A stretch of DNA of 64,000 nucleotides, taken from contig OY843751.1 in NCBI GenBank assembly GCA_963693055.1, positions 3,360,001 through 3,424,000 of the forward strand. The letters are read 5' to 3'. The stretch comes from a bacterium. Its GTDB lineage: Bacteria > Zhuqueibacterota > Zhuqueibacteria > Residuimicrobiales > Krinioviventaceae. Below are positions 13,963 to 16,668 of the stretch, one piece after another. Below the pieces are notes generated by a model. That model had not been told where the DNA came from. It saw nothing but the letters and a program-made list of their open reading frames with translations, and searched no databases. Numbering within the stretch: position 1 is the first letter of the stretch; each line of letters begins with the position of its first letter. The position numbers and the translations under genes are program-made.

Positions 13963-13999
13963 AAAAAACGCCATGCAATTCAATTGTATGGCGTTTTTT
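13963..13999. terminator. Bidirectional intrinsic terminator
   Basis: AAAAAACGCCATGCAATT-C-AATTGTATGGCGTTTTTT between convergent genes. Confidence 0.85.
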
Positions 14000-14082
14000 G
14001 TTTTGTAATGTACGCAAAAAATTAGTAAATAAAAAAATTATAAAACATTGAAATTTTTCATATAATTCATTTGGCAATAGTA

Positions 14083-14859
14083 TTAAAAATTAATTACATT
14101 TTTCGATTGTATTTTTTTTGAATACTCAATAGAAGAAATTATATCATTTTCAGTTAAAACTTTATCATACTTTTCATATTTCCTTTTCATATCATTTAAC
14201 CTAATTAATGCATTTCCAAATTTATCATTTAAAAAACCAATTCGACTTATAATATAATTATTACAATTTTCATCAAAATTAACATTATAAACTTTTCTTA
14301 TATAAAAAGCTTTTAAAATGTTTGCTTCAATAGTAGGATTAAGTGATTTATACTTATCATTTTTCTGAATAATATCAAGTTGATTATATTTTAAAAAATT
14401 TAAAAAATTTTTTATATTCATCTTTTTTGAATGTATATTGATAACTAATGAATCATAATTATAAAAACAGCCATTTGCTATACTTTCTAAAATATTATCA
14501 TCATTTTTAACTACAAGTTTATTATTAAAAGCCCAATTATTTTCAATACACCACGTATCAATTTCATAATTATCAAGTAAAATTTTTATACCATTCATCC
14601 TATTTATTTTATAGTTCAAATTTGTATTTGTTAATAATTCTTTTACTCGTGTTGTAGGTAAACCAATTATTATATCTAGATCTCTTGTTTCCTTATCAAG
14701 TATTATATCACGTAAAAAACCCCCTACAACATAGGCTGTACCATATGCGAATATTTCATAAAAGAAATCTTTAACTTTTAAATTTCTATTTAATAATGTT
14801 GAAAATTTTATTATAAATTTTTTCCGTATGCTGTTGTAATCAATTTCATCATAATGCAT
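14083..14859 (-). CDS. Minimal CCA-adding/poly(A)-polymerase-like nucleotidyltransferase (putative CloB-like partner of the dGTPase)
   Basis: AYVVGGFLRDIILDKETRDLDII matches the class II NTase head motif GGxxRD...DxD, with a third acidic residue in EIDTW. Only 258 aa and lacks the RRDFT motif. Starts immediately after the dGTPase stop (TAA-ATG). Confidence 0.75.
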   Translation of the reverse strand: MHYDEIDYNSIRKKFIIKFSTLLNRNLKVKDFFYEIFAYGTAYVVGGFLRDIILDKETRDLDIIIGLPTTRVKELLTNTNLNYKINRMNGIKILLDNYEIDTWCIENNWAFNNKLVVKNDDNILESIANGCFYNYDSLVINIHSKKMNIKNFLNFLKYNQLDIIQKNDKYKSLNPTIEANILKAFYIRKVYNVNFDENCNNYIISRIGFLNDKFGNALIRLNDMKRKYEKYDKVLTENDIISSIEYSKKIQSKNVINF

Positions 14860-16230
14860 TTATATTCTTATACCTTTCAATTTTTGAAATAATGAAATAG
14901 CATATGAATCAGTCATACCTACTATAAAATCTAAAACCAATTGAATCTTATTATATTTTATGTTATTGTAATAATTTTTACTATAACATTCATAGATATG
15001 TCTATAGCTAGAAGATATGCATTTATACAGCCTACTTTCTTTATTATTATTCTTCGTATCAAAATCATCAGATAAAATCCCTGCTACAAAAATATCAAGA
15101 AGACCACAAATAGCCTCAGAACCTGCTAACTCAGTTTGCATTATTTTTTTATTATCAAACACAATATTTTGTAATTTTTTAAATGATTTTCTTATATCAG
15201 ATGCTTCTGAAACATTTATAATTTCATCGTTCAAACTACCGCTCATGATGCTTTCATAATTTTGTTTAAATGCTTGAATTACGTGACCAATCATTTTTGA
15301 TTGAGCTTTCACACGAAATTTTTGAATTACTAAATTAATTTTATCATTACCATCAACTTTAATTTTTTTATATAATTCTTCTAGTTCATCATTTAACTCA
15401 ATATTTGTTTGTAAATTTTCTTTAAATATATCAATAATATCATTATAACATATTATTCCAAGTTTTACACCATCTTCAATATCAGCAGCACAATAAGCAA
15501 TATCATCAGCGGCTTCTAATAAATAAACAACAGGATGCCTTTGATTATTTAATTTAAGCTTATCATTAATTCTTTTATATGCCTCTTGCTCTGAAGCAAA
15601 ATATCCAAATTTTTTCTTTCGAATTTCAATAGAATTTTTCCCATTATTACCTTCAATTGAACTAGAGGGATATTTTATTATAGATGCTAAAGATGGAAAA
15701 GTTAAATTAAAACTAAACTCATCACCAAAATAATGCAATTTTCTCAAAATTCTAAAAGTTTGGACATTACCATCAAAATTTTTAAAATCTTCTTTTTCTT
15801 GATTATTAAGATCATTGAAAATGTCAGTTTCGAATTTTTTTATAAAAAATTGTTGAATTGCTGTTTCACCAAAATGTCCAAATGGTGGATTACCTAAATC
15901 ATGCACTAAGCCTGATAATTTTAGTAGAGAGCTTATATGCCCCCTAAATATTTCATCTAAATATTTATTATCAATTAAAAACTTTTCTATACTTAAACCA
16001 ATCGAACTCGCAATATAAGAGACTTCTAACGAATGAGTCAGTCGAGTTCTTATAAAATCACTTTTCTCTAATGGAAAAACTTGTGTCTTATCCTGCAAAC
16101 GCCTGATTGAAGAACTGGAAATCAATCTTCCATAATCATTTTCAAATGGATTACGACCATCATATTCCGATTTTTGTGATTTTTTACGGAATGTTTCTGG
16201 TGTTAAAAGCTCATCCCATCTTTTCTTCAT
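14860..16230 (-). CDS. dgt: dGTP triphosphohydrolase (HD superfamily), probable anti-phage effector
   Basis: RRLQDKTQVF, RTRLTHSLEV, HDLGNPPFGHFGE, FDGNVQTFR, EAADDIAY and DFIVGMTD motifs. Confidence 0.92.
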   Translation of the reverse strand: MKKRWDELLTPETFRKKSQKSEYDGRNPFENDYGRLISSSSIRRLQDKTQVFPLEKSDFIRTRLTHSLEVSYIASSIGLSIEKFLIDNKYLDEIFRGHISSLLKLSGLVHDLGNPPFGHFGETAIQQFFIKKFETDIFNDLNNQEKEDFKNFDGNVQTFRILRKLHYFGDEFSFNLTFPSLASIIKYPSSSIEGNNGKNSIEIRKKKFGYFASEQEAYKRINDKLKLNNQRHPVVYLLEAADDIAYCAADIEDGVKLGIICYNDIIDIFKENLQTNIELNDELEELYKKIKVDGNDKINLVIQKFRVKAQSKMIGHVIQAFKQNYESIMSGSLNDEIINVSEASDIRKSFKKLQNIVFDNKKIMQTELAGSEAICGLLDIFVAGILSDDFDTKNNNKESRLYKCISSSYRHIYECYSKNYYNNIKYNKIQLVLDFIVGMTDSYAISLFQKLKGIRI

Positions 16231-16414
16231 AGTATAAACTCTTTCTAATCATTTATGATTATAATTTTTTTAGATGTAATTTAGTAAATATAATAACTAT
16301 TTATTAATGAAAACAATATATAATTATGATGTCTAATATACAAAAATTAGAAATAAGATTATGCTGTCAATTTATAACATTTGATGTATTCATTATATTA
16401 ATAATTATTATAAG

Positions 16415-16477
16415 CCCCTTTATCCCCTTTATCCCCTTTATCCCCTTTATCCCCTTTATCCCCTTTATCCCCTTTAT
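16415..16477. repeat. Perfect tandem repeat (CCCCTTTAT)x7
   Basis: Seven exact 9-bp units read directly. The minus strand is (ATAAAGGGG)7. Confidence 0.97.
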
Positions 16478-16668
16478 AATTTGAATAATTAATAGATTTC
16501 AGACAAAATATGCAAGAAATAATTGGTTTATTATCCATTTTCAAAAAATAATTTTATAAAGAAAATTTTCAAATTAATATTTACTAAATATATCAGTGTG
16601 AGAATTGTTTAAAAATTACCAACCCGATAAACGATGAGTAAAATGTCCTTGCAACAATATGCAATTTA

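Follow-up and report, generated by a model that had tools for sequence, protein, structure and literature searches.

Clover is a two-gene system composed of a dGTPase, CloA, and a nucleotidyltransferase (NTase), CloB (Yamaguchi et al., bioRxiv 10.1101/2025.07.09.663793 / PMC12265719; PDB 9P8S-9P8V). CloA is described as assembling into an octamer and as toxic when the NTase product is lacking. The Clover systems tested in that preprint come from Salmonella, E. coli and Xanthomonas, all of them proteobacterial, and both operons tested against phage are described as protective. Its CloB tree also lists Flavobacteriia, Bacilli and Clostridia, and some CloB homologues are described as standing alone or beside other effectors. 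The preprint calls the inhibitory nucleotide p3diT broadly conserved, the enzymes tested being proteobacterial only; among these, the distant CloB of Xanthomonas still produces p3diT (PMC12265719).

According to the same source, the phosphates of p3diT are held in SeCloA, the CloA of Salmonella, by R29, R34 and R38, whose joint mutation abolishes inhibition. Q311 contacts the first thymine; of the second thymidine, the base is read by D37 and N75 and the sugar by F41 and R314. F41 of subunit A and N75 of subunit B line the same thymidine, and D37 and N75 are also labelled as dimer-interface residues (ED Fig. 1; PMC12265719). The interface site is reported to bind differing ligands across dGTPases, and in the Leeuwenhoekiella enzyme F40, which from the numbering would be the equivalent of SeCloA F41, excludes a 2'-OH at this site (PMC9257424).

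The window analysed here is a stretch of 64,000 nucleotides from a bacterium of the Krinioviventaceae (GCA_963693055.1, contig OY843751.1, positions 3,360,001 to 3,424,000) and carries such a dGTPase-NTase pair. The system is already published as Clover and the pairing itself is no surprise. What is new, as far as the sequences tell, is a branch that lies apart from the tested proteobacterial one, with near-fixed changes at four residues of the p3diT pocket.

The gene pair and its catalytic motifs

The two genes are coupled, the TAA stop codon of the dGTPase gene abutting the ATG start codon of the NTase gene (Table 1). Profile searches assign the first product to the HD-family dGTPases, and alignment to SeCloA finds its catalytic set complete (H66, H110-D111, H119/E122, D242 and Y246, for H69, H117-D118, H126/E129, D242 and Y246 of SeCloA). 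The second product carries GGFLRD at residues 46-51, D60-x-D62 and a third carboxylate, D101, and through D60/D62/D101 its active site fits the Clover pattern [D/E]h[D/E]..h[D/E]h. The intact HD motifs, the TAA directly followed by the ATG of a 258-aa NTase and the retained GGxxRD...DxD, all read off this DNA in an earlier note, are thus confirmed.

The Pfam match of the NTase is confined to the PolyA_pol head (residues 42-102, E 2e-7), and a profile built from 107 sequences aligns along 164 positions with the CC-adding enzyme of Aquifex (E 3e-8). In this profile alignment RRD is replaced by A128-N129-G130 and EDxxR by T176-I-E178-A-N180, and the C-terminal body and tail of CCA enzymes are absent from the 258-aa protein. 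The earlier claim that the RRDFT nucleotide-selection motif and the body and tail are missing therefore stands as to the loss but not as to the label, since RRD, in motif B, serves to recognise the ribose, and bases are selected by the EDxxR template of motif D (PMC2910056). The AlphaFold model of the NTase has a pLDDT of 92.7, and sequence profiles assign the fold to the head of CCA/poly(A) polymerases; none of the PDB sequence matches of the NTase is named as CloB.

This fold, and the occurrence of some CloB homologues alone or with other effectors (PMC12265719), would suit an NTase that, in the manner of toxin-antitoxin pairs, modifies either the ends of RNA or its own dGTPase partner, rather than a signal synthase. 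The protein has nevertheless lost RRD, EDxxR and the C-terminal body, a full-length PolyA_pol-family enzyme of CCA type (479 aa) is already encoded by the host genome, and homology to our CloB proxy extends along 190 aa of the NTase (see below); we consider such an activity very unlikely.

Table 1. Location of the features discussed in the text; positions without a prefix refer to the window
Feature	Location	Strand	Remarks
Whole AT-rich insert, two genes only	14000..16656	.	2.66 kb; 4 bases instead in same-genus genome G001
Host terminator-like hairpin	13963..13999	.	A-run before, T-run after; kept in G001; insert begins right after
Perfect 9-bp tandem repeat, 7 copies	16415..16477	.	Upstream non-coding region of insert
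CloA-like dGTPase, 456 aa	14860..16230	-	HD and HE residues complete; changed p3diT pocket (N31, G34, S38, Y72)
CloB-like class II (CCA/PAP-head) nucleotidyltransferase, 258 aa	14083..14859	-	D60/D62/D101; without RRD and EDxxR
HD proteins after CloB-less dGTPases	L065:2098-2715, L085:379-990, L103:4366-4980, L104:1084-1701, L118:1099-1701
Extra dGTPase in same-family genome	G010:C1:298252-299550
Listeria dGTPase	L172:2498-3895		Beside rpsL
E. coli CloA-type pair	L200:6001-8230		Between flhB and cheZ
Dysgonomonas apparent deletion remnant	L045:5722-6417

A two-gene insert in the host genome

The pair lies on an insert, since a genome of the same genus matches both the left (86%) and the right (88%) flank with 4 bases between them. 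The host hairpin that immediately precedes the insert could also terminate the transcript of the cassette. Neither terminal repeats nor a target duplication could be convincingly recognised at the insert, and the 29 promoter-like sites are about as many as chance predicts (26.2). The tandem repeat, located some 185 bases before the start of the dGTPase gene, could permit length variation in the promoter region.

Both genes had been described as AT-rich, and this is confirmed by a GC content of 26.5% for the dGTPase gene and 20.2% for the NTase gene against 39.4% for the genome, in which 6 of 13,066 overlapping 2.1-kb segments are equally GC-poor, these six possibly including segments over the locus itself. 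The NTase was found in none of the 60 relatives searched, and the host genome encodes a separate second dGTPase. The cassette was probably acquired horizontally. An extra dGTPase in a genome of the same family matches the window protein with an E-value of 2e-56, and this genome gave no NTase match.

Homology to Clover and position in the dGTPase tree

The top four PDB matches of the window dGTPase are SeCloA (E 1e-74 to 1e-72), followed at some distance by the next entry (1.5e-55). For comparison, SeCloA-type loci were collected, namely a Phaeobacter plasmid pair and metagenome stretches, 120 in all and 80 with flanks, drawn with a pattern that fixed R34, D37, R38 and F41. An SeCloA-type pattern search gave one true locus among three matches. 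The Phaeobacter DNA, used as query, had no match in E. coli genomes, whereas metagenome loci did: the pair of locus L089 has an identical or almost identical counterpart in about 100 of 5,426 complete E. coli genomes, and the E. coli CloA-type pair is matched in 116 of them. The dGTPase of this pair matches SeCloA with an E-value of 1.5e-190 and its partner carries D61/D63, the numbering of the CloB mutant given in the preprint (PMC12265719); we infer that the E. coli pair between flhB and cheZ is the E. coli H5 system of that paper.

The window dGTPase is 34% identical to the E. coli CloA-type protein, and the window NTase is 25% identical over 190 aa (pairwise E 1e-15) to its partner, taken as a proxy for SeCloB. 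The family profile of the window NTase matches this partner sequence with 98% probability, and a profile-profile comparison with the family of the Phaeobacter partner reaches 99.1%. Both genes are Clover homologues, in agreement with the architecture that the earlier note had named. The note had also offered two versions of this view. In the first, a distant Clover member in a new lineage, the distance holds, and the group is probably not new to the Clover authors: the branch is probably among the ~650 Clover homologues of the preprint, because its CloB tree lists Flavobacteriia, Bacilli and Clostridia (PMC12265719). As to the lineage of the host, the named MnmA matches are Bacteroidales or Bacteroidota proteins at 57-58%. 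The second, a variant with a different signal, gains support from the changed inhibitor pocket described below, which makes another signal conceivable. A literature search for a second Clover signal, with subscription journals outside its scope, returned the preprint and reviews only, and a term search of PMC13519002 gave no mention of Clover.

In a FastTree phylogeny of 101 dGTPases, the window protein falls in a clade of 31 members, mostly from Bacteroidota (support 96), and the SeCloA-type dGTPases form a separate clade of 58 members (support 100). Both clades were recovered by IQ-TREE on 24 of the 101 rows (99/97 and 100/100), and the separation of the window branch from the tested proteobacterial Clover branch is well supported. 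In the IQ-TREE phylogeny the window branch, the SeCloA branch, two Bacillus pairs, the Listeria Dgt and the Enterobacter Dgt meet in one fork without resolved order, so that a single origin for all CloA-like enzymes goes without support from the tree.

A well-supported subclade of SeCloA-type dGTPases is devoid of CloB. Each of its members is directly followed by an HD protein of 200-205 aa (Table 1), and the three such proteins tested all exceed the cut-off of the 5'-deoxynucleotidase model PRK03826; this subclade may represent a partner swap, with a deoxynucleotidase in place of the signal synthase. Three other SeCloA-type dGTPases (L056, L067 and L080) have no CloB match in 1.7 kb downstream, and that of L080 abuts a 428-aa protein without an NCBIfam match.

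Co-inheritance and defence neighbours

The two genes are inherited together. The NTase has 207 close homologues and 1,178 representatives detected by profile at E<=0.001; cluster look-ups gave a name in one case of 10, a Paenibacillus protein. A scan of species genomes for the NTase gave 38 loci, 35 of them titled as Bacteroidota groups, with a dGTPase match directly upstream in 37, the 38th running into a contig edge; the co-conservation whose absence the earlier note had listed among the points against its proposal is therefore observed. These 38 loci include two duplicates (L016, L018) and four apparently broken copies (L008, L021, L032, L045); in the Dysgonomonas copy a C-terminal piece of the dGTPase runs into the second half of the NTase, apparently as a remnant of a deletion. 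On plasmids, six of seven NTase matches directly follow a dGTPase match, all six in Bacillus. Within the branch, pairwise identity in one gene tracks that in the other (Spearman 0.87; 29 gene pairs, which are not independent of each other). Viral contigs yielded no relative of either gene.

Defence neighbours were sought in 28 of the 38 loci, namely those with long flanks, after leaving out duplicate, short and broken ones. At E<=1e-8, PADLOC models match 44 of the 217 ORFs next to these loci and 13 of the 128 in the control, an approximately twofold enrichment (Fisher p 0.016) to be read with the non-independence of the ORFs and with a control that represents the genome of the window and not the hosts of the loci (evenly spaced regions, 128 of 176 called ORFs). 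The control matches are mostly to generic domains. By manual reading, specific defence neighbours (RM, AbiE, NsnABC, OloAB, PD-T7-5, PDC-M30 and others) are present in 15 of the 28 loci and absent from 13. The location in defence islands described for Clover may apply to part of the relatives; none of the 12 flanking genes of the window copy matches PADLOC.

The pair could then be regarded as a mobile regulator of the dNTP pool with no role in phage defence. The isolated window copy and the 13 loci without a specific defence neighbour are in line with this, as is a tree in which the branch is not separated from the housekeeping Dgt of Listeria. Conversely, the distribution is sporadic, with an empty site in the same genus, more than half of the loci (15/28) lie beside RM, AbiE, Nsn, Olo, PD-T7-5 or PDC genes, and both tested Clover operons protect against phage (PMC12265719). 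Such a purely metabolic role seems to us improbable.

The nucleotide-binding sites

In SeCloA numbering, the window dGTPase keeps R47, D61, K256, S418, T449 and Y452 of the dTTP site and differs at Q172 and N420. Among 30 distinct full-length members of its branch, R47, D61, K256 and T449 are found in all and Y452 in 27, and two contacts of the dTTP phosphates are mostly changed (Q172 to Y or H, N420 to S). The conservation of this site is weak evidence, because an unpaired Listeria dGTPase has most of the same residues (R47, D61, K256, S418, N420, T449 and Y452). The identity between this Listeria protein and the window protein is 39.7%, and given these residues the former may itself be dTTP-activated. 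The Q127F change of the window dGTPase is also present in the Enterobacter Dgt and is no argument against dGTP specificity.

The p3diT pocket is visibly altered. Five of the ten listed contacts are kept (R29, R38, N181, Q311 and R314, each invariant in 30/30), four are replaced (R34 by N in 27/30, D37 by G in 29/30, F41 by S in 30/30 and N75 by Y in 29/30), and T25 varies within the SeCloA-type set as well. Among the 41 SeCloA-type proteins paired with an NTase, 37 have N75 and all 41 have R34, D37, R38 and F41, the latter count being circular because the search pattern fixed these four residues; their presence in SeCloA and in the Phaeobacter protein owes nothing to the pattern. The Bacillus pairs retain an aromatic residue at position 41. 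As 25 of the 122 positions fixed in both branches differ, a background of about 20% fixed change has to be considered.

The NTases of the two branches also differ. At the base-template position the window branch has E178 (32/33) and N180 (33/33), whereas the SeCloA-type branch has mostly L (20/45) and M (24/45); further differences are R59 versus S and G130 versus T. RRD is missing from both branches, so that nothing points to a regained use of ribonucleotides.

A proposed mechanism and the identity of the inhibitor

The insert most likely carries the logic of Clover, that is, a dTTP-activated dGTPase restrained by a 5'-triphosphate dinucleotide made by the NTase. By analogy with the described systems, the dGTPase would be specific for dGTP and activated by dTTP, the NTase would synthesise the inhibitor, and the pair would act in defence against phages. 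In the uninfected cell, the coupled NTase is predicted to hold the dGTPase off through its product, a short dinucleotide with a 5'-triphosphate; upon phage infection, rising dTTP would likely switch the enzyme on, and the active dGTPase would drain dGTP during infection. Against this Clover reading count the almost branch-wide replacement of four p3diT contacts, the difference at two dTTP-phosphate contacts, the lack of defence neighbours around the window copy and a raw enrichment that is only about twofold.

The invariance of R29, R38, N181, Q311 and R314 suggests that triphosphate and first thymidine are likely still part of the inhibitor. The molecule as a whole may differ, because the pocket that binds the brake differs from those of the studied systems. 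We see an even chance that the signal is still p3diT, in a pocket rebuilt by remodelling of the dimer interface, where Tyr72 of the other subunit would take over the role of aromatic platform from the missing Phe41. F41S combined with N75Y could indeed be an aromatic swap, as both residues line the same thymidine in SeCloA; D37 and N75 also belong to the dimer interface there, the distant Xanthomonas CloB has kept p3diT as its product (PMC12265719), and the background of fixed change is itself considerable. This reading has to accommodate the loss of D37 and N75, with which SeCloA reads the second thymine in Watson-Crick fashion, and of one of the three arginines R29/R34/R38, as well as an NTase with E178/N180 in place of mostly L/M.

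A different inhibitor, still a 5'-triphosphate dinucleotide with thymidine first but with a second nucleotide that has another base or a ribose, is conceivable, although we would not favour it outright. It would explain the near-fixed loss of the base readers D37 and N75 and of the sugar reader F41 next to the five unchanged contacts, and the parallel differences in the NTase (R59, G130 and E178/N180). The exclusion of a 2'-OH by the equivalent Phe of the Leeuwenhoekiella enzyme and the variety of ligands at this site among dGTPases (PMC9257424) point in the same direction. On the other hand, the argument comes entirely from the inspection of residues, the conservation of R34, D37, R38 and F41 in the comparison set is circular through the search pattern, the Bacillus pairs keep an aromatic residue at position 41, and RRD has been lost in both branches. 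We tentatively raise, with more doubt than conviction, the idea of a second Clover type centred on Bacteroidota, with its own inhibitory nucleotide, in which the synthase and the pocket of the receptor would have changed together.

Whichever signal is used, this branch offers a sharp and inexpensive test of the claim that p3diT is broadly conserved, because neither reader of the second thymine survives in the receptor and the base-template position of the synthase differs. If the product differs, it would be a new immune nucleotide and a case of signal diversification within inhibitory signalling; if it is the same, the branch would exemplify a pocket rebuilt around one ligand.

Comparison with known systems

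Class II CCA-adding enzymes and poly(A) polymerases share with the window NTase the head domain with GGxxRD and DxD. An assignment to these enzymes was rejected, as ANG and TIEAN stand in place of RRD and EDxxR and the 258-aa protein has no body or tail.

The Shewanella SpdGTPase (PDB 9P8W; NCBIfam NF041026) is likewise an HD-family dGTPase, and the PADLOC dGTPase model matches the window protein (E 2e-72), whose match to SpdGTPase is much weaker (E 3e-29). SpdGTPase is described as having no NTase partner and as active without an activator (PMC12265719). The window dGTPase scores 203 bits against the cut-off of 400 of NF041026 and has a coupled NTase, and it was not retained as a stand-alone anti-phage dGTPase. 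Housekeeping Dgt enzymes (those of E. coli and Listeria and the dATP-activated one of Leeuwenhoekiella; PRK01096, 427 bits for the window protein against a cut-off of 439) share the fold and carry an allosteric site where the subunits of the dimer meet. Those retrieved are, however, unpaired genes in housekeeping contexts, and the host has its own separate dGTPase.

Clover resembles the window pair in the order and size of the genes, in the HD/HE residues, in an NTase with DxD..D, in the homology of both genes, and in the retention of most dTTP-site residues and of R29/R38/N181/Q311/R314. The window pair differs from it by its separate branch, by R34N, D37G, F41S, N75Y, Q172H, N420S and Q127F in the dGTPase, and by other residues at the base-template position of the NTase.
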